From IMG/VR virus record IMGVR_UViG_3300036970_000191: 64,000 nucleotides of DNA; one strand, written 5' to 3'. Below the pieces are notes generated by a model. It did not search any database, was not told the origin of the DNA, and worked only from the letters and a program-made list of their open reading frames with translations. Made by a program: the position numbers and the translations under genes. This document shows, piece after piece, positions 1,903 to 48,681 of this stretch. Source of the stretch: an uncultured virus (IMG/VR IMGVR_UViG_3300036970_000191). Its lineage: Duplodnaviria > Heunggongvirae > Uroviricota > Caudoviricetes. The number at the start of each line of letters is the position of its first letter. Within the stretch, counting starts at the first letter, position 1.

Positions 1903-2267
1903 GCCTCATCGCCCTTGTTCTTGAAACAACGGCAACGGGTCTTTTGTTAACCGGCATTTTGCAGCTCATCAAGGACATTCCCTATCAGCCCGGCGAAGCC
2001 TTTGTGTTGGGTGGATGTATAGGCGCACTGGACATCCTGTGGAGAATTGCCAAGAGTCGCTATGAGACTGTTCCGTTGGTTTATGGCGATCGCTTTTGGT
2101 CATTACTGCAATGGCCAGGGATAGTCATCGGTGCCTCGGTACATCTAAGGACTTATACCAACCTTGATTTACTGGCGTGTACCATTCTTTCCCTGGTGAT
2201 TGGAACCGCGATTTTAATGACGAGGCGACTGATCTTTCTTGAAACAACGTGTGGTAAAAAATACTGA
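1872..2267 (+). CDS. Membrane protein (about 4 TM segments)
   Basis: Four hydrophobic stretches; ends just before the hairpin at 2279. Confidence 0.65.
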   Translation: MAHLQRHPWLSLIALVLETTATGLLLTGILQLIKDIPYQPGEAFVLGGCIGALDILWRIAKSRYETVPLVYGDRFWSLLQWPGIVIGASVHLRTYTNLDLLACTILSLVIGTAILMTRRLIFLETTCGKKY

Positions 2268-7281: not shown

Positions 7282-7424
7282 GACGATGTGCCCTTTGGGT
7301 TGATGTTAAAAAACGCTCGACATATGATGAACGGGCTATTGATTGCTGTGTAAAAATATACAGGGTTGAGTGTTAACTTAGCCCTATGTTTTAAGACCTA
7401 AGGGGTCGTTATCAAAGGGGTCTT

Positions 7425-8575: not shown

Positions 8576-9070
8576 ATGTCAAATGCTGTCATTGCCAACG
8601 TCCTGCTTGACGTACTGGCCAACAATCGCCGTATCGACTTCATGGACATGCTCATGCACCATGTTCGTCCATACGTGTTTAAACCGTTTCTTCTGGGCGA
8701 TGAACCGATCCATGGACTCAAGCCATATCTGGTCGGCTCAATGGCCCGTAAGGGCGCTCGTGCACGCTCGATTTATCGACTGCCCTCCATTGTACTGCCC
8801 ACCTTTGATTACGACGTGGTCAATCAAAGGGATTCTGCATACACCAGACAAGTGGTCTCGATGTGCTGGAAAGTTATCACGTATTTGAAGTCGCAGGGTT
8901 TTGGTGATCAATACGAGACTGTAATTATTGATTACCGAAAGAATCGTTATGTACTGATCTCGATCGAACCTGAGTTTGCCAGCGAGATCATCAAGGCCAT
9001 CGGTGGATCACCCTCAACAAATGTGGTGAGTCACCGTATCTTTAACCACACATCCAAAAAGGAGGAATGA
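8576..9070 (+). CDS. Hypothetical protein
   Basis: AAGGAG RBS; stop overlaps the next start. Confidence 0.7.
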   Translation: MSNAVIANVLLDVLANNRRIDFMDMLMHHVRPYVFKPFLLGDEPIHGLKPYLVGSMARKGARARSIYRLPSIVLPTFDYDVVNQRDSAYTRQVVSMCWKVITYLKSQGFGDQYETVIIDYRKNRYVLISIEPEFASEIIKAIGGSPSTNVVSHRIFNHTSKKEE

Positions 9071-9432
9071 TGAAATCGCCGATCTTTCCTGTGCCTGGGT
9101 GCCAGAATCGTCGGTCATTGGTGATTAAGCCTGACGGTACACCAAGACAGATTCAACTGGCACACGACCCTATCACTGGAGAAGATGTACATTATCAGAG
9201 CATGGAGCCTGGAGACACGTTTGTCGAAAGGCTTGTCTTTGACGATTACCCTTTTCCTGTTCTTAGGGCAAGACGTTTTACGGGTCATCCAAAGGAGCGC
9301 CCGTTTGAAATCCCTCAGCTTTATGCCGAGGACATGACGAGTTTCCTTAACGACTGCGCCAGCGCAGTCACTGCTTTCATCTACGCGCGTTCAAACGCGA
9401 TTTTGTCATTGGGAGAGAAACATGTGGCCTGA
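9067..9432 (+). CDS. Hypothetical protein
   Basis: AAGGAGG RBS; operon context. Confidence 0.7.
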   Translation: MMKSPIFPVPGCQNRRSLVIKPDGTPRQIQLAHDPITGEDVHYQSMEPGDTFVERLVFDDYPFPVLRARRFTGHPKERPFEIPQLYAEDMTSFLNDCASAVTAFIYARSNAILSLGEKHVA

Positions 9433-9739
9433 CATCAATGTTTACTGGGATAAGGAACCCGTGGAATTGGTTTTTCCTGAACGCTATGCTTTTGACAGTC
9501 TTCAAGGTGGAGAAATCCCCATGAACGTCAAGATTAAGCGCTCTGAACACCATCGCTTCTTGATGGTGAACAAGACCATGTTCAGACGTGGCCTTATTGT
9601 GGGTTCAACCTACATTCACCCCAACTACGAAGGTGACCTTTCCATCTATGTCCGCAACATCACAGCGCACATGGTTGAAGTCGATAAGGGCGAAGTGTTT
9701 GCCCACATTGTCACTGTGAAAAACATGCCAGATGCATAA
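9422..9739 (+). CDS. Degenerate dUTPase-fold protein
   Basis: GLIVGSTYIHPNYEGDLSIYVRN and VDKGEVFAHIV resemble trimeric dUTPase motifs 3 and 4; no motif 5. Confidence 0.6.
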   Translation: MWPDINVYWDKEPVELVFPERYAFDSLQGGEIPMNVKIKRSEHHRFLMVNKTMFRRGLIVGSTYIHPNYEGDLSIYVRNITAHMVEVDKGEVFAHIVTVKNMPDA

Positions 9740-9748
9740 ACCTTAACC

Positions 9749-9778
9749 CCCCTGATGGCCCGTACGGGCCATCAGGGG
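9749..9778. terminator. Perfect palindrome / terminator
   Basis: CCCCTGATGGCCCG-TA-CGGGCCATCAGGGG; T tract at about 9797-9804. Confidence 0.7.
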
Positions 9779-9802
9779 AATCTCGGTCTCATCACCTTTT
9801 TT

Positions 9803-10434
9803 TTATGCCAAAGGGCATAAACCCCAAACCCCACGACTAACGCTAGATCACGCTGGGTTTTAACCCATGAACCAGTCGAAAGGACCTGCGGTGAAAGCGC
9901 TGCATCATAGCTAACTTTCTGCAAGGATCACGGTCGATAGCGGCTCGTGTCGCTAGGGGGGTTTGGTTGCAGACCCCAGGAGAAGGGGTAGCGATAAACC
10001 TGCGGAGCTAAGGGCCCTACAGGCGCTCGAGTGTCCCCTATCCCACGCAGATGCAGTGCCTTTGCGATCAACCAAGTGGCAGCCTAGGTAGTGGTGGCGG
10101 CATGGTTGATCACGGGGAAGGCAGGGGTCGGGGTGTTTCACTCTCGCAAACCATAGGGGTAATCCTGTATTTTTTTACGGGGTCGGCCGCCATGAAGATC
10201 ACACGAGCACCCCCACCCTTCGGGAAACACCACCAGACGAACACGTAAAACTTCTGGTTTCCCTGGGGTGCAAGTTCCTGGTCGTTACGATCGCTGGATT
10301 CCAACCCTTCGGGGTAATCCCGATGGATTTTTCTTCCCCCTTGGGATTTTTGTTTGTTTTTTGATCAAAAATCGGGGTTAAAACGCCCGGTTGACCAGAG
10401 CCCCAAAGCGTCGGTCAAACCGAGGCGTTTTTTT
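9803..10434 (+). ncRNA. Candidate large structured non-coding RNA (about 630 nt)
   Basis: No credible ORF; many nested stems, long-range loop pairings, a C-UUCG-G tetraloop and a 3' hairpin with U tract. Confidence 0.5.
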
Positions 10435-10451
10435 GTTTCCCTTCCTTATGT

Positions 10452-10704
10452 CGCGTGCATGTGTGCACGCACGTTATTTACATTTGCGCGCATGCGCGCG
10501 CGTTTTTTAATTTATTTATTACGAAGTAATAAATAAATAAATTTATTAAAATAATAAATAAAATATAAAATTCTTACGAAGTAAGAATTAAATATATAAA
10601 AAAATAAATAAAAATATTTATAATTCTTACGAAGTAAGAATTAAATATAACGCGTGTGCGCGTGTGTGTGCGTGTACGTGCGTAAGCGCGCGCGTGCGCA
10701 CGCG
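10452..10704. other. Origin-like element: AT-rich core with three C-GAA-G hairpins flanked by alternating purine-pyrimidine tracts
   Basis: Palindromes at 10510-10538, 10569-10589 and 10621-10643; RY tracts at 10452-10474, 10485-10503, 10650-10684 and 10686-10704. The structure is directly seen; the function is inferred. Confidence 0.55.
10569..10649 (+). repeat. 28-nt direct repeat AATTCTTACGAAGTAAGAATTAAATATA x2
   Basis: Copies at 10569-10596 and 10622-10649. Confidence 0.9.
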
Positions 10705-10818
10705 GCATAAGGAAGGGGATCATGAGTCCGATGGGGTCATGGACCAGAAAATCCACCCTGTAAAAAAATACAGCGAATCCCTGTTATTTTGTGAGTCCAG
10801 CAACATCACAACCGCATC

Positions 10819-11643
10819 ATGAAAATCATTCGAGTCAAGACCAAGAACCAACGTGTCCTGTCCGAGCTTGGACAAGCCGTGTCCAAGTGGGCCCGTGTCG
10901 TACCCACGAACGTGTATTCTTTGGAATCCCAGCAACTGCAAGCCGTCGGAGCCATGCCTCGGTCTGACATCGTCGTGATCGACCCAAGAACCATCCGCCA
11001 GTCTGAACTGGCCAGCATCGTCGCCTCTGGCGAAGACGAGAACGCAGGACACGACCTGCTCGTCGTGAAGCACCCTGACGAATCCACCACCCAACGGATC
11101 GATCGCGAAGAACTCGAGGGCGTGCTCAAGGACTCTGGGTTCAACGTGTTCAACACGACCCAGGATGTCGTGAAGTACGTTGAGAACAAACGCGATGAGT
11201 TTCAGGACGAAACCTCTGGCAGCGTGGACACGGGTATTTCCAAGTCCCAAGCGGCCACGGAGTCTCATGGGTCTACCGAAGATGACCCTGAGTTCATCGA
11301 GAAGGTTTCCCGGATCGTTCATGAAACCTTGCGGTTTTACTGCCGGTTCATCGGGGATTACACCCTCCTGAGTTGGGATCGCTGTCCCGAGGATTCTCGT
11401 CAGAGCACGCTCGATGGCGTCTCGTATCACCTGCAAAACCCTAAATCCACCCCAGCGCAAAGCCACGAACGCTGGATGGCATTTAAAAAATCATCGGGTT
11501 GGTCCTATGGCAGTACCAAGGACGTGGTGAATAAACAACACCCGTGCATGGTGCCCTATGACGATCTTCCTGAGCAACAAAAACTCAAGGACATGCTGTT
11601 TTGCGTCCTGGTCAATCTGATTGCCCGTGAGTTTAAACCCTGA
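10819..11643 (+). CDS. RyR-domain protein
   Basis: C-terminal HERWMAFKKSSGWSYG...KQHPCMVPYDDLPEQQKLKD is the RyR repeat signature. Confidence 0.8.
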   Translation: MKIIRVKTKNQRVLSELGQAVSKWARVVPTNVYSLESQQLQAVGAMPRSDIVVIDPRTIRQSELASIVASGEDENAGHDLLVVKHPDESTTQRIDREELEGVLKDSGFNVFNTTQDVVKYVENKRDEFQDETSGSVDTGISKSQAATESHGSTEDDPEFIEKVSRIVHETLRFYCRFIGDYTLLSWDRCPEDSRQSTLDGVSYHLQNPKSTPAQSHERWMAFKKSSGWSYGSTKDVVNKQHPCMVPYDDLPEQQKLKDMLFCVLVNLIAREFKP

Positions 11644-11666
11644 TATTTATTTGGAGTAACCATCGC

Positions 11667-11975
11667 ATGTCGAGTAACAAAACAACCCAGAAATTGCTTC
11701 AGGACCATCTTGAAAAAAACCCGTTTCTCGTACTGTTCGAAAATGCCGAAGAATCGAAGGAAGAAACGATTGACCCTGTTCTTTCTCGCATGCAAGAAGA
11801 ACTTGCTGAAATCACCAAGCGGGTGCGGAAGCTGCATGCGTTTCGATCAGGGGCAAAGCCTGAGCACATCAGCCAAACCCAATGGGATTTGCTCCTGACC
11901 CAGCTACACGCCATGCGCATCTATCAAACCACGCTCATCACGCGTTGTCGCTTGTTTGGCAAGAACGACGACTGA
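11667..11975 (+). CDS. crAss001_48-like helical hairpin protein
   Basis: RMQEELAEITKRVRKLHAF...LLLTQLHAMRIYQTTLITR pattern. Confidence 0.6.
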   Translation: MSSNKTTQKLLQDHLEKNPFLVLFENAEESKEETIDPVLSRMQEELAEITKRVRKLHAFRSGAKPEHISQTQWDLLLTQLHAMRIYQTTLITRCRLFGKNDD

Positions 11976-12058
11976 CGTCGTCTGGGTATAGACCCCGTTA
12001 TTTTCTCCAGTGCTGATTTGTGTTTTGTATTCAAGTCACGCGCTGGAGCAAATAACCG

Positions 12059-12988
12059 ATGAAGCAGTATCACGACATCCTGACCAAGATCAAGACCCAA
12101 GGGGTCCATAAGTCTGACCGCACAGGGGTTGGCACCCTCAGTGTCTTTGGTCATATGACGCGTTATGACTTGTCAGAAGGGTTTCCCATACTCACCACCA
12201 AGTCCATTCATTTCCCCACGCTGGTCAATGAACTGCTTTGGTTCATTCGAGGCGACACCGATGTTAACTGGCTTAAAACGCGCAAGGTGAGCATTTGGGA
12301 TGAATGGGCTACCAAAGAGCAATGTGCACGCTTTAATCGCCCAGAAGGGCAGCTAGGGCCCGTATATGGCCATCAGTGGCGTAACTTTGGTGCCAGCATC
12401 ACCAACAGTGCAGAAGAAGCCCTTATGGTTTGTAAGCAGAACGCCGCAGATGGACGTCCCACGACCTACGCTCACTATCAAGTGGATGGCGTCCCGATGG
12501 TGTACTGCAATAACGGGTTTGACCAATTGACCTGGCTGATCAATGAAATCAAAACAAACCCGAATTCCAGACGGTTAATCCTCACCGGATGGAATCCAGC
12601 CGAAGCCAACCTTGTGGCGTTACCGCCATGCCATACGCTGTCTCAGTACAGTGTTACCGATGGAAAGTTGTCTTGTATGTTGTTTCAGCGCTCTGCCGAT
12701 ACATTCCTAGGCACGCCTTACAACATTGCAAGTTATGCCCTGCTGACACACCTCCTCTCCAAGGTGTGTGGATTGGGTGTGGGTGAGTTGGTCTATGTGA
12801 CCGCTGACACACACCTCTACAGCAACCACATGGAGCAGGTGGATGTGCAATTGTCTCGTGTACCCGACCAGTTGCCCATCCTAAAGCTTGATGCCGAGGT
12901 GAACGATTTGTATTCGTTCCAAGCCCATCATATCGTGCTCGATGGGTATCGACCTCAAGCGAAAATCCCTGCGCCTGTGGCGGTGTAA
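12059..12988 (+). CDS. thyA: Thymidylate synthase
   Basis: DRTGVGT, ELLWF, GPVYGHQWR, ALPPCH, QRSAD, PYNIASY and HLYSNH motifs; C-terminal PVAV. Confidence 0.97.
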   Translation: MKQYHDILTKIKTQGVHKSDRTGVGTLSVFGHMTRYDLSEGFPILTTKSIHFPTLVNELLWFIRGDTDVNWLKTRKVSIWDEWATKEQCARFNRPEGQLGPVYGHQWRNFGASITNSAEEALMVCKQNAADGRPTTYAHYQVDGVPMVYCNNGFDQLTWLINEIKTNPNSRRLILTGWNPAEANLVALPPCHTLSQYSVTDGKLSCMLFQRSADTFLGTPYNIASYALLTHLLSKVCGLGVGELVYVTADTHLYSNHMEQVDVQLSRVPDQLPILKLDAEVNDLYSFQAHHIVLDGYRPQAKIPAPVAV

Positions 12989-13023
12989 TCCAACAAACCC
13001 CACGGTTGGCTACCCTAGTCCCG

Positions 13024-21039: not shown

Positions 21040-21070
21040 CATTTTTTACAGTTATATACTACTAAAATGA
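21040..21070 (+). promoter_or_regulatory. Putative phage RNAP (early-type) promoter
   Basis: TTTTTTACAGTTATATACTACT, identical to the copy at about 48653-48674; resembles the phiKZ early motif TATATTAC. Confidence 0.65.
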
Positions 21071-22343: not shown

Positions 22344-22539
22344 GGATTAAGCATCCCAGTAAAAAATAATCTCACAGGATATGATATGTGATGAAAGAGC
22401 TGGCGTTTACGCCGGTTCCCACACCCACCGGATACCCTTTACCCTGTGTTTTCTTGAATCCAAAGATTTTAAGGACACACACTATCAAAGTGACCAGAAA
22501 CCATTTGGTCTCTTTTTAACCAGCACTCGGAGAGAAAAG

Positions 22540-24414
22540 ATGCTGAAACCCAAGCAACCCCAAAACCAAGCTCAGGCCCAAGCGCAAACTCAGGCCCAGC
22601 AACCTCAGCAACAGGCCAATGTAGGGCGGGGCTTCGCTCGTCAGGGGACCTACATGGCTTCGGCTGGCGGCAATGCCATCCTGCAAGCACTTGCAACGCA
22701 TGTGCGAAACATGATCGGTACTGATCCGAACAACCCGCCCATCGACGTCGCAGTTATCGACGCAGAGCAGAACCAACTGCACTGCGGCGCTTTGGTGCTG
22801 AGCGAACTGCGTACCACGGCAAACGAGAAAGTCGCTGTTGTGTACACGGTTATGGTTGAGCCGACTGTACGGACCAGCCAAGCAATGACTCAAGAAGTCG
22901 TCTACAACGGCAAGCCTTACAACATGCCGTTGGTACTGACCGATGCGTTTAATCACACCTACTGGGATCGCGTCCAGACTCACATGGCGGCCCGTCATCA
23001 ACTGGCATCCACTGCTGACGTGGTTTCTGCTGGCATTGGCTTCATCACCAAGGAGATGTACGAAGCCTGGAACCGCAACCCTGACCAAGACCAAACCGTC
23101 AACAATGTATTCTTCGCAGCAGCCGAAGGCATTGGTTCGATCGGAGACGCCGTCAGCGGCGTGCAAAAACGCGCCAACACCGCACTGATCGAAGTGGCCA
23201 ACGGCGGTCAGACTCGCCTGCAACGCGAGTTCGGTAACCGTTCGGTGATTGGCACCACCGGCCTGCCGACCATCAGCGACGTTTCGCTGTCGATCGACAT
23301 CATCCCGCCAAAACAGCAAGGTCGTGCGAACATCGACGTGATGAACAATGGCGGCAGCCAACTGGTCACCACCCGTGGCTATCTGGAAACCGTTGTGGTT
23401 GCGCAGGACAACCGTAACACATTCTTCCGGACTCGTCGCAACACCCGCGACGTTGAGCCGCCCTGCATGGCAAACTTTGTCATCAGCGACATCGTAAACC
23501 CCACCGGCCAGATCACCATCGAAACCGTGGCCATGGGTCTGTTTGCTGCGCTGGGCATCACCGTCAATTACGCCTGGGCTGAGATGCTGCTGCCCAAATA
23601 CGGCGCAGAGAACACCCGCGACATCGGCATGCTGATGGTTGAATTCGGCGAACTCTTCGACGAGCCCAACGAACCAATCGATACTCAGTCGACCAAGTTC
23701 GATGAGCGTGTGGGCCGCGAATACATCGACATGATGTACCGTCCTGAAGTGGTCATTTCGATCGACTTCCCGGAAGCAGGCGGTATTTCCTGGGTGGGCG
23801 ACATCTTCCGTGAGGCTGCCGAATCCCCTGATCCGGCTGTTCGTCAGCGCTATCGCAGCATGCTGGCACGCACCATCAGCGACTTCACTGGCGGTCACTT
23901 CGATCCCAACTATCAAGGAGACTTCACCATCGATGCGGACCGCCGCATCCTGATCGGTTACGACACCGATTCCCATGGCAATCCGGTAGACCCTCGTTCC
24001 AAGAACGACTACCTGGCTCTGCTGACCCTGATGGGCAACAGCGATCTGCAACTGGTTCGCGATTGGGACCTGCACACTCGCCCAACCTCGACCACCGGCA
24101 TTCCGCCAGAAGTTCGCCTGACCGTTACCGACACCATTTCCAAGCGTGTCTTTAGCTCCAGTGCCCGGTACGTCACTGGCGTTCGTCGCCACCTGATTGA
24201 CCCGAACTTCCTGCAGTTGTTCGCCGTTGCTTGCAACAACGCTGGTCTGACCCCGACCCCGTCCAACCAGACCAACAGCTACGCCAGCATCAACCGGGCT
24301 GCAGGCGACCTGTACATCAACAACGGCATTGGCGCTTCGACCAACTTTGGTTCGGGCCGTTCGCCGTTTGGCGGCGCTGGTTTCTCGGGCCGCAACTTCA
24401 CGGGTCGCTTCTGA
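22540..24414 (+). CDS. chmA: Chimallin, phage nuclear shell protein (phiKZ gp54-like)
   Basis: About 624 aa; sits between the gp52-like gene and nvRNAP beta'-N; strongly biased codons; disordered N-terminus and G/F-rich C-tail; ACNNAGL near the C-terminus. Assigned by size, synteny and recalled features. Confidence 0.8.
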   Translation: MLKPKQPQNQAQAQAQTQAQQPQQQANVGRGFARQGTYMASAGGNAILQALATHVRNMIGTDPNNPPIDVAVIDAEQNQLHCGALVLSELRTTANEKVAVVYTVMVEPTVRTSQAMTQEVVYNGKPYNMPLVLTDAFNHTYWDRVQTHMAARHQLASTADVVSAGIGFITKEMYEAWNRNPDQDQTVNNVFFAAAEGIGSIGDAVSGVQKRANTALIEVANGGQTRLQREFGNRSVIGTTGLPTISDVSLSIDIIPPKQQGRANIDVMNNGGSQLVTTRGYLETVVVAQDNRNTFFRTRRNTRDVEPPCMANFVISDIVNPTGQITIETVAMGLFAALGITVNYAWAEMLLPKYGAENTRDIGMLMVEFGELFDEPNEPIDTQSTKFDERVGREYIDMMYRPEVVISIDFPEAGGISWVGDIFREAAESPDPAVRQRYRSMLARTISDFTGGHFDPNYQGDFTIDADRRILIGYDTDSHGNPVDPRSKNDYLALLTLMGNSDLQLVRDWDLHTRPTSTTGIPPEVRLTVTDTISKRVFSSSARYVTGVRRHLIDPNFLQLFAVACNNAGLTPTPSNQTNSYASINRAAGDLYINNGIGASTNFGSGRSPFGGAGFSGRNFTGRF

Positions 24415-35892: not shown

Positions 35893-37986
35893 ATGGACGA
35901 TAAACCGTCATCCATACTCGACAGTGAATACCAGATCCACCCCAAGTTGACTGGTGTCATGGGACTTAACCCACTGCTTCGTGAGTCATCGGCCCCACGG
36001 CTATACATGTTCTTTGGCCAGCTTAGCCAAGCCATGACCACCAAGGGCGTTACACCAAACATGTTCTCAACATTTGCTGAGGATGAGTTTGGTAAATACA
36101 CCTTCTCGGTCAAAATGCCGCATCGCGGTGAAGTGTACCGGGTCATTCGAAAATACCCAACCACGGACTATGGCTCAAAGAGCGTTCAGTCACCGCTGAC
36201 GCTTGCCATCTACCAGAACCTTGAAAGTGATATTCGTGAATTTGATGTTCTGGAATTGCCGCTGTATCACACCATGCACCAACACTTTGGCTACAGCTTT
36301 GTGGGTCGCGAAGCGCTTAACCGGATTCGTCCACAAGGCGTATTGCGCAAAGGCGAAGAGGTGCTGGGTTGTCCTGGGGTCTGGGAAGATGGCACGTTCT
36401 GCTATGGCACCGAAACCAACCTGGCTTTGATGACGCTGCCCGATGTCATTGAGGACGGGGCTTTGGTGTCTGAAGAATGGCTTGAAACCCAGCAGGTGGA
36501 GTGCTTTGGTAAACGGGTCATTCGTTTTGGCCGTGATGAGATCCCGATGAACATTTACGGGGATGATCGAAACTACAAAATCATTCCTGACATCGGCGAT
36601 CGTATTCATGAAGATGGCCTTTTGTTTGCCAGTCGAAAGGTGGACCCGTTGTTGGCGTGCGTACAATTGCTGCCACGTAATCTAAGGCACGATCGTATTC
36701 TTCCAACCGATCGACTGACTTACGCCATCCCAAATGCCGAGGTCGTCAATGTCACGGTGTTAAAGGGCCGTGGTAACACACCCTCTATACCAGAGGAAAT
36801 GGAAACCCAGCTTCGCCGTTATTACGACAAAGCCCGTGATTTCTACAAACAGATTTACGACACGGAGATCGATCTATACCGAAACTTTGGCAACAAGATC
36901 CGCTTCACACCAGCACTGCATCGTTTGTTTGTTGATGCCAGGGCTTATCTGGAAACCTACAATGGTACCAGTAATGTTGAACCCCGCTACGGTAAACTCA
37001 AGGTCAATGACTGGCTTGTGGTGGTGGATTATCGCTACAAACTCACGCCAGACATTGGCTGGAAGATTTCCGACTCCCAAGGGGCCAAAGCGGTTATCGT
37101 GGCCAAACGACCCAGAAGGGAAATGCCTACGGACATGCACGGCAATGTGGCTGACGTCGTGATGGACCCAAACTCCACCGTGAAGCGAAGCAACGTGGGT
37201 CGGACCACGGAGCAATGGATCAAAGCATCGCTGATCTATCATGGCAATGTCATTCGTGGCATGCTAAGCGAAGGCAAAGATGAAGAAGCCTGGGAGTACC
37301 TGCTTGGGTACATGAAGATTCTTTCTCCAGCGCACCATCGCCTACTGCTTAATCCGGAATTGGACAAAAAGCACGAGTTGTCCAAGATCCGTCGCAGAGG
37401 CATTCGTTGCTATGCCCCAACCGACAATCCAGTCGCTTACTACCAGGCCATCGATCAACTGGAGAAAGAAGGCTATGGACTGCCCATTGGTCCAGTCAGT
37501 TACGTGGGCAACAGCGGTAACCGCGTCACCACCAAACAGGAGATTGTGATCGGTCCCGTCTACATGTATCTGCTGGAGAAAGATGCGAGGACATGGGCTG
37601 CCGTCACCAGTGCCAGACTTCATCCAAGCTACGGCACACCAACCAAACTGGGCGCTTCAGATAAACACCGTTCGCCTGGTAAAGAGAGCGCCACCAAGAC
37701 ACTGGGTGAAACCGAAGAACGTCTGTATTACGCAGCGTGCGGTGGCTATGCCGTGTCTCAGGTGATCGAGCGTTCAAACAACCCCTTGGCTCATCGCAGT
37801 GCGGTTCGAAACGTACTCAAGAGCAAACACCCCACCGACATTGTGGACAGCGTCAATTGGAACGAAGTTCCGGTGACTGGTGGACGACCCCTACAATTCT
37901 TGACCCACATGTACAACTGCATGGGTATTGGTTTTGAAATCCCCGAGGAGAACCGTCGTGTCGACTTCTTACCCCCAGGCTACTGA
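35893..37986 (+). CDS. Non-virion RNAP beta C-terminal subunit (gp71-73-like), intron-less
   Basis: SA.R.YMF..Q, IEDG, G.KISD.QG.K, AD.VMDP....KR.N.GR, Y...L.K and GETE motifs. Confidence 0.9.
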   Translation: MDDKPSSILDSEYQIHPKLTGVMGLNPLLRESSAPRLYMFFGQLSQAMTTKGVTPNMFSTFAEDEFGKYTFSVKMPHRGEVYRVIRKYPTTDYGSKSVQSPLTLAIYQNLESDIREFDVLELPLYHTMHQHFGYSFVGREALNRIRPQGVLRKGEEVLGCPGVWEDGTFCYGTETNLALMTLPDVIEDGALVSEEWLETQQVECFGKRVIRFGRDEIPMNIYGDDRNYKIIPDIGDRIHEDGLLFASRKVDPLLACVQLLPRNLRHDRILPTDRLTYAIPNAEVVNVTVLKGRGNTPSIPEEMETQLRRYYDKARDFYKQIYDTEIDLYRNFGNKIRFTPALHRLFVDARAYLETYNGTSNVEPRYGKLKVNDWLVVVDYRYKLTPDIGWKISDSQGAKAVIVAKRPRREMPTDMHGNVADVVMDPNSTVKRSNVGRTTEQWIKASLIYHGNVIRGMLSEGKDEEAWEYLLGYMKILSPAHHRLLLNPELDKKHELSKIRRRGIRCYAPTDNPVAYYQAIDQLEKEGYGLPIGPVSYVGNSGNRVTTKQEIVIGPVYMYLLEKDARTWAAVTSARLHPSYGTPTKLGASDKHRSPGKESATKTLGETEERLYYAACGGYAVSQVIERSNNPLAHRSAVRNVLKSKHPTDIVDSVNWNEVPVTGGRPLQFLTHMYNCMGIGFEIPEENRRVDFLPPGY

Positions 37987-39994
37987 TGTATTGCCCGTGA
38001 TCAAGGCCAGGGACATCCTTTTGATGTCCACTCGGCAAGTCTGGTCACTGGGTACAGGCGTACACACCGTGGTCTTTGACAACGGTGAATCGCTAACCAC
38101 CACCATCCGACGGACCATCTTTTCACGATACTGCTGGTCTTCGTTGTTGCTTTACCCATCGTTGCCACTCTTGCCCAAGTATCACATGGGCAAGCGTTCT
38201 TTGTCCAAGGACACGGCCAAGGAAATCATGGCCATGATCCAGATGGACATCATCGACAACAACCCTCAGCACACCAAGGCATTCTCCGAAGAAATCTGGG
38301 CCAATGACTACGCTGCGATCAACGAGATCTATAACGATTTCACCGTGCAGCTTGAGGCGTACGTCACCAGCATCTCCGCCAGAGATTTTGTTAACCTGCT
38401 GAAAAACCCGACCATTGAATCCATCAACGAGAGGATTCAAAAGAGCAGCCTCATCACCGAAGAGCACATCAAGGACGCTCACAGCAACATCCTAAAGACC
38501 ATCAAGACCGACCCCACCCTGCAGGGCAACCACTTCGTCAATGCGGTGCGCTCAGGCGTACTCAAGTACGATCAAGTCCTGCAGATCGTAGGTCCGATTG
38601 GATTTAGGGCGGATGTGGATTCGCGGATTTTCTATCCACCGATCAAACATGGTTACGGTCATGGCCTGACCAACCTTTACGAATCCATGCTCGAGTCTCG
38701 CTCGGCATCACGATCCTTGTTCTTTCAGAAGAAACCGATGGAGCAATCTGAATGGACCAACCGGATTGTTCAACTGATGACGGCCATCATCCAAAACCTG
38801 CACGAAGGAGATTGTGGCACCAGCAATTACCTGTTGATTCACCTGACCAGCCGTAACCGTTTCCTGGACGCCATCGGACAGTATTATTACGACGATGAAA
38901 ATGGCGGTGTTCTTAAGCCCATCATGCCTGAGGACACCCACCTGATTGGTAAATCGGTACGCATTCGCAATGTGCTGGTTTGTGGTCACCAGGATCGCTA
39001 CGGCGTTTGTGAAACCTGCTTTGGTCAGTTGAGCCGATCCATCCCGGCAAGAACCAACATTGGTCATGTGGCTGTTACCATTTTGCTGGGTACGGTGGGA
39101 CAGTTTATTCTCTCCACCAAGCACCTTGACAAGACGGCAACGGCTGAACGGCTGACCCTTCCCTTAGAGAGTCGGTTCTATCTACAGACCGATGAACGAA
39201 TGGATTCAGCATATCTGTCATCGAACCTCTTGGGCAAGGACTTCTACATCACGTTTGACCCAGAGGAACTCAAGTACCTCATGGACATTCAATACGTTGA
39301 CGATGTGAGCGTGCTTCGTCCTGAGCGTCTTTCTTCCATCACCAAGATCTTCGTGGAGTTTGTCACCAAATACAGCATCGAAACCAAGGTTGTGTCCCTG
39401 GGTGGTTCAGCCGCCAATCCCGTACTCTCGATGGACTTTATCTCGTACATCCGTCGGGTGGGCTGGGGACTTTGTGATCAAGGTCGAATCCGTGTGGACA
39501 TGCGTCAGTGGGATTACAGCAAACCCCTCTTGACTTTGCCCATGGTACAGTTTAGTTCACCAGCCTACATGAAGTCCATCCAGGTGTTCATCAAGGGCCG
39601 CGATGAGAAGTCTGACCAGTATTCTTCGGTGACAGACTTTGATGACATGGGTGCTGCCCTGATGGCTCTTAACGATCTGGTGGGCTTGAAGCTTCGGGTG
39701 AACATCGCCCACTTGTCCGTGGTTCTACTGGCCACAAAGATCCAGGACCCTGTGACCATGGACTACCGTCCACCATTACCAAAAACCGGGGGTACACCCA
39801 TGAAGTTCTCTGACCTCATGATGTACCGTTCACTGTCAGCGGCCAATGCCAATGCCGGTCACCTTAAACTGGCGTTTAGCAAAGAGTCGTTCATGTGCAC
39901 CAAACGCCCACCCCATCCACTAGACTGGATTGTGATGCCCAATGCCCGCGAAAATGTTCCTGTACACCCATCACTTCGTTATACGCGGTTTTGA
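37928..39994 (+). CDS. Non-virion RNAP beta' C-terminal subunit (gp74-like); true start probably near 37991-37997
   Basis: ESRSA, GDCGT, Zn ligands C.HQD.YGVCETCFG, and Q..LSTKH. Confidence 0.88.
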   Translation: MVLKSPRRTVVSTSYPQATDVLPVIKARDILLMSTRQVWSLGTGVHTVVFDNGESLTTTIRRTIFSRYCWSSLLLYPSLPLLPKYHMGKRSLSKDTAKEIMAMIQMDIIDNNPQHTKAFSEEIWANDYAAINEIYNDFTVQLEAYVTSISARDFVNLLKNPTIESINERIQKSSLITEEHIKDAHSNILKTIKTDPTLQGNHFVNAVRSGVLKYDQVLQIVGPIGFRADVDSRIFYPPIKHGYGHGLTNLYESMLESRSASRSLFFQKKPMEQSEWTNRIVQLMTAIIQNLHEGDCGTSNYLLIHLTSRNRFLDAIGQYYYDDENGGVLKPIMPEDTHLIGKSVRIRNVLVCGHQDRYGVCETCFGQLSRSIPARTNIGHVAVTILLGTVGQFILSTKHLDKTATAERLTLPLESRFYLQTDERMDSAYLSSNLLGKDFYITFDPEELKYLMDIQYVDDVSVLRPERLSSITKIFVEFVTKYSIETKVVSLGGSAANPVLSMDFISYIRRVGWGLCDQGRIRVDMRQWDYSKPLLTLPMVQFSSPAYMKSIQVFIKGRDEKSDQYSSVTDFDDMGAALMALNDLVGLKLRVNIAHLSVVLLATKIQDPVTMDYRPPLPKTGGTPMKFSDLMMYRSLSAANANAGHLKLAFSKESFMCTKRPPHPLDWIVMPNARENVPVHPSLRYTRF

Positions 39995-47573: not shown

Positions 47574-47701
47574 TTAAATTACCTTGATTCTAATTTTTTT
47601 ATAGTCACTCACCATTTAGATGAACCCACTCGTTTAAGTCCTCCCCCTTAGACATTCCATGTGAGTGGTATCCCTTGGGGAGTTTGTTTAGGAGTTTTAT
47701 C

Positions 47702-48649: not shown

Positions 48650-48681
48650 CATTTTTTTACAGTTATATACTACTCAATTGA
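48650..48681 (+). promoter_or_regulatory. Putative phage RNAP (early-type) promoter
   Basis: 22-nt identity with the 21042-21063 motif. Confidence 0.65.

Follow-up and report, generated by a model that had tools for sequence, protein, structure and literature searches.

A conserved quasi-palindromic DNA element with Z-prone arms and three C-GAA-G hairpins in a nucleus-forming jumbo phage: a possible origin-like site

What is kept in a 1.08-kb non-coding gap between co-oriented genes of a jumbo phage? The question is raised by the uncultured virus IMGVR_UViG_3300036970_000191, of whose genome we examined a stretch of 64 kb (the window), together with 22 kb of a relative, L213. The gap (9740–10818) holds a single-copy, non-coding element of ~290 bp, in which an AT-rich core with three hairpins is enclosed by alternating purine–pyrimidine arms. 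An earlier note had described it as a supercoiling-sensitive element and suggested a replication origin, a packaging site, or a nuclear-shell anchor, the last of which neither gained nor lost support here. The comparisons below show that the element is genuine, conserved, and unusual; most plausibly it is a cis-acting DNA site, which would work as DNA in either orientation and not as a transcript signal. The best reading of its role is an origin-like unwinding and initiation site, which we propose tentatively.

The element is closed by a 25-nt inverted repeat, the left outer arm of which (10434–10458) is 88% complementary to the right outer arm (10698–10722). This repeat brackets all other parts, making the ~290 bp a quasi-palindrome centered at ~10578, in the loop of hairpin 2. 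Two alternating tracts lie to the left of the core (Z1, 23 nt, 10452–10474; Z2, 19 nt, 10485–10503) and two to its right (Z3, 35 nt, 10650–10684; Z4, 19 nt, 10686–10704); re-measurement gave the same lengths as the earlier note. Z1 contains CG and TG/CA steps only, and the tracts as a whole are almost purely made of these steps, with just two TA steps in the 35-mer. Z2 holds the palindrome GCGCGCATGCGCGC and is followed by TTTTTT, a combination that is terminator-like on the + strand. On the − strand, a terminator-like pattern is formed by the first 14 nt of Z3 with the AT run next to them.

The core (10504–10650, 147 nt) is 91.2% AT and has (TAAA)n-like spacers, A-rich on the strand that carries the GAA loops. 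As had been noted, all of its G/C bases (13/13) fall inside three palindromes. Hairpin 1 (ATTTATTTATTAC-GAA-GTAATAAATAAAT, 10510–10538) has a perfect 13-bp stem, with a predicted energy of −7.5 kcal/mol as DNA (z −7.0). Hairpin 2 (AATTCTTAC-GAA-GTAAGAATT, 10569–10589, 9-bp stem) is the center of symmetry of the whole element, and hairpin 3 (TAATTCTTAC-GAA-GTAAGAATTA, 10621–10643) has a 10-bp stem. The CGAAG motifs start at 10522, 10577, and 10630, which reproduces the reported loop spacing of 55 and 53 nt, and all three GAA loops are on the + strand. The only G–C pair in each stem is the closing pair. Differences between the stem of hairpin 1 and those of hairpins 2 and 3 are paired and compensatory, and four of the five window matches to the hairpin half-site ATTCTTAC are inside the element. 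The 53-nt unit that includes hairpin 3 is 83% identical to the unit preceding it. Reading these repeat-plus-spacer units as a CRISPR-like mini-array or repeat decoy was rejected, given that level of identity and the low-complexity AT spacers. A restriction-site decoy was likewise dismissed, as the sequence outside the element shows no marked avoidance of CGCG or GCGC (observed/expected ratios of 0.85 and 1.0).

The composition of the element is extreme for the window. Six alternating runs of at least 14 nt occur in the 64 kb; four are those of the element, gathered within 253 nt, and the other two measure 14 and 15 nt. In 300 first-order Markov sequences of 64 kb, the longest run had a mean of 15.6 nt and never exceeded 24 nt. 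Any run of at least 19 nt appeared in 25 of the 300 simulations, and more than two such runs in none. Frames of 100 nt reach 75% AT at the core only, and the longest stem at any other CGAAG/CTTCG site in the window is 5 bp.

The element is not an assembly artefact, a doubt raised in the earlier note, because collinear Logan contigs from two other, independent studies bridge it at the same length. A 10.2-kb contig of run X3 covers 9000–10520 and 10626–11673, with exactly 105 contig bases between them for 105 window bases. A 6.6-kb contig of run X4 covers 9000–10507 and 10626–12500, with 117 contig bases for 118 window bases. The comparison skipped 10521–10625 as a repeat, which hides the loops and makes the low depth there meaningless. 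A depth spike with loose ends in run X8 (10638–10754) looks like unrelated GT/GC-repeat contigs, and the contigs of run X2, which break near the element, are uninformative.

The same architecture was found at the syntenic site of L213, a metagenome contig with a DNA polymerase 64% identical to that of the window phage. Identities of the other orthologs are 35% for the upstream protein, 48% for the N-terminal half of the downstream protein, and 57% for thymidylate synthase. The L213 element (~1549–1792) is located between orthologs of the same genes, is single-copy in the 22 kb, and retains the order arms–core–arms. A left alternating run of 20 nt is followed by an AT core whose three hairpins are perfect (ATATTCTTAC-TTC-GTAAGAATAT, ATTCTTAC-TTC-GTAAGAAT, and TATATTCTTAC-TTC-GTAAGAATATA) and by a right alternating run of 30 nt. 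The non-coding DNA around the element no longer aligns between the two phages. The outer arms differ in sequence, yet they pair in both. An identical ATTCTTAC-loop-GTAAGAAT core is present in five of the six hairpins, and all six stems are perfect despite differences at their outer positions, which change in pairs. The closing C–G pair and the GAA triplet are invariant and occupy the same strand within each element, namely the A-rich one (3/3 in both phages). Six of the seven L213 matches to the half-site ATTCTTAC are inside the element. The spacing of the L213 hairpins is 40 and 46 nt, as compared with 55 and 53 nt in the window; therefore, the phasing by about five helical turns proposed in the earlier note is not conserved.

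These observations bear on the kind of site that is maintained. The invariant GAA and C–G pair on one strand, with the paired stem changes, would be more in keeping with a single strand that folds than with a symmetric site in duplex DNA. The half-site, confined as it is to the element, probably marks a dedicated site and not a general promoter or terminator motif. Occupation of the same intergenic gap at 35–64% protein identity, with an exact hairpin core, implies long vertical retention, apparently under selection.

The last point can be set against the view that the element is a selfish or self-maintaining palindrome without benefit to the phage. It might be a non-autonomous (MITE-like) element bounded by inverted repeats at its termini, or its symmetry might be kept by recombination within the element. 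The 25-nt terminal repeats with their 88% complementarity, the opposite orientation in the two phages, and the absence from the other chimalliviruses examined would agree with this. So would the fact that the arm sequences differ while symmetry is kept, as conversion from arm to arm predicts. However, the element is single-copy in both phages over the lengths examined, no target-site duplication is visible at its ends, and it has stayed in the same gap with its exact hairpin core across the divergence given above. Copies with two hairpins were found neither in 185,579 prokaryote genomes nor among the 111 loci of IMG/VR in which the 15-mer hairpin core occurs. A selfish palindrome appears quite improbable to us.

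Looser searches of IMG/VR returned other kinds of loci. Paired TTACGAAGTAA occurs at 20 loci, which resemble tandem-repeat arrays in the stretches inspected. Triple TACGAAGTA occurs at 28 loci, and an alternating run of at least 16 nt lies within 400 nt in none of them (0/28). Short intergenic regions at L272 and L299 (also at L276, L293, and L294) contain several C-GAA-G hairpins each, which differ in their stems and are reminiscent of the early-promoter clusters of the N4 type. Other loci consist of tandem arrays of a unit containing TACGAAGTA, and the array at L294 is flanked by a tRNA-like sequence.

The orientation of the core was a further informative difference between the two phages. 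On the gene-sense strand, the window has GAA loops and A-rich spacers (20A/10T and 22A/9T), whereas L213 has TTC loops and T-rich spacers (8A/11T and 8A/14T). The motif GCATGCGCGC with its T-run is common to the window (in Z2) and to L213, but it is on the opposite strand in L213. The core is thus inverted with respect to the genes, and its function would be independent of orientation to them. Roles as a promoter of the gene downstream, a terminator of the genes upstream, or the RNA of a 5′ untranslated region are disfavored because each requires a given direction relative to gene flow. The inversion thus argues against these roles and favors an orientation-independent DNA site, unless the element acts symmetrically. 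A single-copy site acting at the DNA level fits the inversion, and to this extent the earlier suggestion of an origin or a packaging site stands; an origin common to the whole family is excluded by the chimallivirus genomes described below.

A symmetric mode of action is precisely what a regulatory explanation would assume. The element could regulate or insulate, from upstream, the promoter that serves the nucleotide-metabolism genes beyond it. Its hairpins would then be operators of a dimeric regulator, read-through would be stopped by the GC-rich arms with their T-runs, and supercoils generated by transcription would be buffered by the Z-prone arms. Signals of this kind are present nearby. 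The AT-rich motif TGTAAAAAAATACAG (10759–10773, + strand) follows the right end of the element after 37 nt and precedes the ATG at 10819 by 46 nt. Seven matches to it with at most three mismatches occur, as compared with 1.9 expected, and none of 100 shuffles reached seven. Further copies are located at 7349–7363 (+) and 10165–10179 (−), a weaker one at 2252–2266 (+), and one at 1496–1510 in L213. The motif is near-palindromic, and its copies on the two sides of the element are divergently oriented. L213 has a similar AAAAAATAC..CGAA between the element and the orthologous gene. From these matches, TGTAAAAAAATACAG is a candidate for a promoter motif specific to the phage. The distance from the end of the element to the AAAAAATAC-type motif ahead of the orthologous gene is 16–37 nt in the two phages. 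For the early promoters of jumbo phages, the available part of the source describes phage-specific AT-rich motifs of ~10 nt near −10 (PMC7598289).

Terminator-like signals are also frequent, with nine sites in 9500–11500 as compared with 2.2 expected. A hairpin with a T-run on the + strand (10411–10433) is immediately to the left of the element, and both inner arms of the window carry an intrinsic-terminator sequence pattern. These signals support the regulatory explanation, but the core and its terminator-like unit are inverted in L213, where the conserved unit faces away from gene flow, toward transcription that is not expected to exist. An asymmetric, invariant GAA would be needless in a symmetric duplex operator. 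No regulator gene was recognized among the 44 window open reading frames (ORFs) scanned, and the half-site is found at no other promoter in the window or L213. Taken together, we consider a regulatory region unlikely, although it deserves to be weighed. A second recurring intergenic motif, TTTTTTACAGTTATATACTACT, occurs at 21042–21070 and 48653–48681 (93% identical), with a weaker copy at 47595–47623; it may belong to another promoter class.

Folding calculations bear on a possible transcript. As a single strand, the window element folds with −81.4 kcal/mol, as compared with −42.4 ± 3.4 kcal/mol for shuffled sequences (z −11.6). In this fold, a 20-bp outer stem formed by the outer arms closes the structure and local hairpins are found inside. 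The L213 element gives −50.4 kcal/mol (z −8.3). The AT-rich hairpins are individually much more stable than their shuffles (z −5.9 to −8.7). The idea that the arms are designed hairpins was discarded, since they fold no better than shuffles with the same dinucleotides (z −1.6 to +1.5). The feature kept in the arms is alternation and GC-richness, not a designed hairpin.

Such stable folds, closed by covarying outer arms, would be expected of a structured non-coding RNA gene. They would also suit an N4-like unit in which hairpin promoters drive the synthesis of short RNAs from the arms. N4 promoters have a loop of this class, C-GAA-G in the template strand, and owing to the symmetry an arm would be transcribed in either orientation. 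Nevertheless, the best Rfam match reaches 33.5 bits against a gathering threshold of 230, and all 14 listed matches are far below threshold. The stems are AT-rich and of 9–13 bp, as opposed to the shorter N4 stems with their GC-rich heptamer. N4 requires a single-subunit virion RNA polymerase (RNAP), whereas this phage has multisubunit RNAP β-like subunits, and such a hairpin precedes no other window gene. An RNA gene or N4-like unit is therefore, in our judgment, very improbable.

The preferred reading, an origin-like unwinding and initiation site, draws on the core and the arms together. The core is an AT-rich region suited to unwinding (91% AT over 147 nt) that is unique in the window. It bears three copies of the dyad-symmetric site (A)TTCTTAC-GAA-GTAAGAA(T), and these copies are putative binding sites; origins of the iteron or unwinding-element type have three or more such repeats. 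The core would be opened by negative supercoiling or by a site-specific protein. The opened A-rich strand would fold into C-GAA-G mini-hairpins, which a phage replication protein (an initiator or a primase) could recognize. The GC-rich alternating arms on both sides would limit the spread of the opening and absorb negative superhelical stress as Z-DNA. We infer all of these steps, that is, opening, hairpin extrusion, Z-DNA formation, protein binding, and the link to replication.

The arms have the sequence character that Z-DNA demands, as the tracts are uninterrupted and rich in CG and TG/CA. The superhelical thresholds that follow are rough estimates from general energetic parameters. The B–Z transition of Z1 would be reached at a superhelical density (sigma) of −0.038 to −0.044. 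For the element, the corresponding ranges were −0.036 to −0.046 for Z-formation, −0.041 to −0.059 for partial melting of the core, and −0.049 to −0.069 for hairpin extrusion. The earlier description of the tracts as Z-prone under negative supercoiling is thus plausible at sigma values of about −0.04, but they would compete with opening of the core.

Several points weigh against an origin, and this competition is one of them. The estimates suggest that, at equilibrium, the Z-tracts would flip first and relax the domain, acting as much as a buffer as a trigger. No initiator, primase, DNA-binding, or regulator protein was recognized near the element among the ORFs scanned. The AlphaFold model of the N-terminal domain of the downstream protein has a pLDDT of 61.7, and its Foldseek matches are generic flavodoxin/CheY-like folds with TM scores of ~0.5; such a low-confidence model is uninformative on DNA binding. 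All three GAA loops are on one strand, whereas the corresponding signals of RSF1010 occur on both. The cumulative G–C curve has its maximum at 10742, at the right edge of the element, but on a flat plateau spanning 8–17 kb, and the right arm itself is G-rich. Third-codon-position skew mostly follows gene orientation. In the 64 kb, GC skew, suggested earlier as a check, thus did not mark the site independently of gene orientation, and it was set aside as weak evidence for an origin.

The distribution of the element also counts against a general origin. It is absent from all five complete chimallivirus genomes compared (Eowyn, RAY, pEa_SNUABM_37, SA002, and PS119XW; 0/5), and none of them contains a pure A/T stretch of 30 nt. 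Comparable alternating tracts are lacking as well: two of the five have a single 18-nt run in the RY phase, SA002 contains one of the other phase, and the contexts of the two inspected were ordinary. On the contig of a relative with 35% identity, the element is likewise absent and there is no alternating run of at least 18 nt. The search among relatives that the earlier note had proposed therefore gave a divided result, with the architecture present at the syntenic site of L213 and missing from these six sequences. Any origin role would be lineage-specific, not family-wide.

A partly similar module was found in other jumbo phages. Three of the 111 hairpin-core loci (L062, L068, and L108) have a similar layout, and a fourth, L234, was reached through the shared TACGCGCGTATAATA (four of 26 loci, three of which are the same contigs as before). 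The module consists of a C-TTC-G hairpin with the stem (T/A)GATC(T/A)TAC, 60–80 nt of AT-rich sequence, and a GC-rich alternating tract of 30–35 nt. Its host contigs are fragments of low-GC jumbo myophages that encode tail sheath and baseplate proteins. Their CheckV completeness is 5–10% at 22–55 kb and 71% for a 301-kb contig, and the genome of the best-covered phage is estimated at ~420 kb. These phages are unrelated to the window phage, the only matches being a lectin-like domain and thymidylate synthase. One copy of the module is present in each of the 54.6-kb and 301-kb contigs, and in L234 its stem shows a compensatory change (CATAC/GTATG for CTTAC/GTAAG). A second alternating run in the 301-kb contig (37069) was discarded, as it has neither hairpin nor AT core.

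Like the window element, the module joins a C-loop-G hairpin, an AT stretch, and a GC-rich alternating tract in a single-copy unit. Unlike it, the module has one hairpin and one arm, is not palindromic overall, has an AT stretch full of AGATCT repeats, and ends in TACGCGCGTATAATA. The hairpin sequence was the search key, its identity is thus not independent evidence, and homology between the two is conjectural. That hairpin, AT stretch, and alternating tract recur together in one copy is no more than suggestive.

The setting of this module is relevant to a further alternative. The element could be the site where packaging starts (pac), or a landmark present once in the genome for another purpose, for instance to generate termini or to pause injection; terminase or a virion protein would recognize it. 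A single-copy, non-coding location, repeated sites in an AT-rich stretch, and tolerance of either orientation would all be compatible with this. In the 301-kb contig of the unrelated jumbo phage, moreover, the module has two large structural genes as neighbors, within a block of co-oriented structural genes, and skew does not change there. On the other hand, no terminase gene was found nearby within the window, and the contigs from two studies run straight through the element, although contigs cannot reveal ends. We regard a pac site or similar landmark as doubtful.

Returning to the origin-like site, a more specific form of it can be envisaged, in which the element is a torsion-gated switch. 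The Z-prone arms would set the threshold and bound the bubble, the three C-GAA-G hairpins would serve as single-strand initiation signals, and flipping of the orientation would be harmless. The version with one hairpin and one arm in unrelated low-GC jumbo phages would then point to a recurrent design of very large phage genomes. If so, a lineage of nucleus-forming phages would have its first candidate replication origin in this element. We rate this fuller proposal as unlikely, though conceivable. A limited search of the open-access literature found no paper defining a chimallivirus origin, packaging site, or cis-acting DNA landmark, in line with the earlier note, which knew of no defined origin. 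In the accessible portions of transposon-mutagenesis preprints, origins are mentioned only as parts of plasmids.

The element is nonetheless a concrete, compact, and conserved candidate for a DNA landmark of a nucleus-forming phage, and it could be cloned. It combines three features prone to non-B-DNA (Z-prone tracts, an easily melted core, and mini-hairpins) in one symmetric unit, which would make it a natural test case for the use of superhelical stress in phage DNA. Its value is limited by the fact that the phage is known from metagenomes only and that the model chimalliviruses lack the element.

The window phage belongs to the chimalliviruses, jumbo phages that form a nucleus. Among its products are a nuclear-shell protein (22381–24414, phrog_4795), two multisubunit RNAP β-like subunits (35893–39994), and two proteins of the DNA polymerase family. 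The best match of its chimallin, in Serratia, Klebsiella, and Erwinia phages, has 25% identity, which places the phage far from sequenced isolates, and a megablast search of 9000–13000 gave no match among GenBank phages. Its DNA is present at least in part in 20 listed public metagenome runs from 14 studies, mostly of wastewater. Seven of the 20 contain at least half of the sampled words of the window, and the RNA runs among them (X15–X20) contain small shares (0.08–0.14). Neither tRNA nor tmRNA was found.

Nucleotide-metabolism and replication genes lie beside the gap, with thymidylate synthase at 1.3 kb and DNA polymerase at 8 kb. The thymidylate synthase probe returned 80 unrelated loci with identities up to 54%. 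With the DNA polymerase probe, IMG/VR gave the 35% relative only, and contigs of prokaryote genomes gave none. The gene directly downstream (10819–11643; 1904–2647 in L213) starts with a conserved orphan N-terminal domain, 48% identical over ~150 aa and without homologues outside its own cluster. Its C-terminal partner is a RyR domain (PF02026) in the window and a phrog_419/nucleotide-pyrophosphohydrolase-like domain in L213. The 274-aa window protein has no relatives in IMG/VR, and in GenBank phages it gives matches through the C-terminal RyR domain only.

Three further observations concern the surrounding DNA. Upstream of the element, ~700 nt of non-coding sequence (9740–10430) are GC-rich and highly structured, with twin CCCTTCGGG hairpins (10216–10224 and 10305–10313) and a long hairpin at 9748–9779. 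This stretch does not align to L213 and has no noteworthy Rfam match at E values up to 1; it could host a non-coding RNA. An ORF of 13 codons (10723–10764) directly follows the right outer arm, in which AAGGAAGG is similar to a ribosome-binding site. An unrelated ORF of 25 codons is found at the corresponding place in L213, with TCATGA kept at the junction, a correspondence that may be coincidence. Contigs in two or three runs diverge or end at 11673 and resume at 11747, leaving a diverged stretch of 73 nt and equal length. The stretch is locally hypervariable and coincides with the start of a small crAss001_48-like gene.

Among known systems, the promoters of the N4 virion RNAP share the loop. 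They have a 3-nt G(A/G)A loop closed by C–G, a stem of 5–7 bp, and a GC-rich heptamer centered at −11, according to the part of the paper available (PMC4496689). The same sections describe the N4 hairpin as extruded by negative supercoiling and stabilized against single-stranded DNA-binding protein (SSB; PMC4496689). The three C-GAA-G loops of the element agree with this loop type, as the earlier note had recognized. The likeness ends at the stems, which have 13, 9, and 10 bp with a G–C pair at the closing position only, and thus no GC-rich heptamer. The orientation of the element to the genes is not conserved either, being inverted in L213, and no N4-like RNAP was recognized among the ORFs scanned in the 64 kb.

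The origin of RSF1010 juxtaposes GC-rich and AT-rich segments beside repeated sites, and it has two single-strand initiation (ssi) signals on opposite strands as well as separate 20-bp iterons. C-GAA-G and related mini-hairpins are unusually stable and bind SSB poorly, as stated in the available text of PMC13037366. In the same text, such mini-hairpins are placed at replication initiation sites, with C-GAA-G in RSF1010 ssiA (CCGAAGG) and related ones at the G4 complementary-strand origin (PMC13037366). The window element resembles RSF1010 oriV, served by the primase RepB′, in having hairpins with a C-GAA-G mini-loop; the RSF1010 hairpin acts after the origin has opened, as far as this source describes it (PMC13037366). 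It differs in having three hairpins with their loops on one strand, strictly alternating arms, and neither separate iterons nor a recognized primase.

Origins of the lambda type, those of broad-host-range plasmids, and oriS/oriL of herpes simplex virus contain dyad-symmetric repeats in or near an AT-rich stretch; in the lambda and plasmid types these repeats are iterons, accompanied by a GC-rich segment. They show palindromic symmetry, stand beside replication genes, and have known initiators and mapped initiation. To our knowledge, long Z-prone alternating arms on both sides have been described for none of them. By general comparison, the element is like these origins in its dyad-symmetric repeats within an AT-rich stretch, in its overall palindromic symmetry, and in its replication-gene neighbors.

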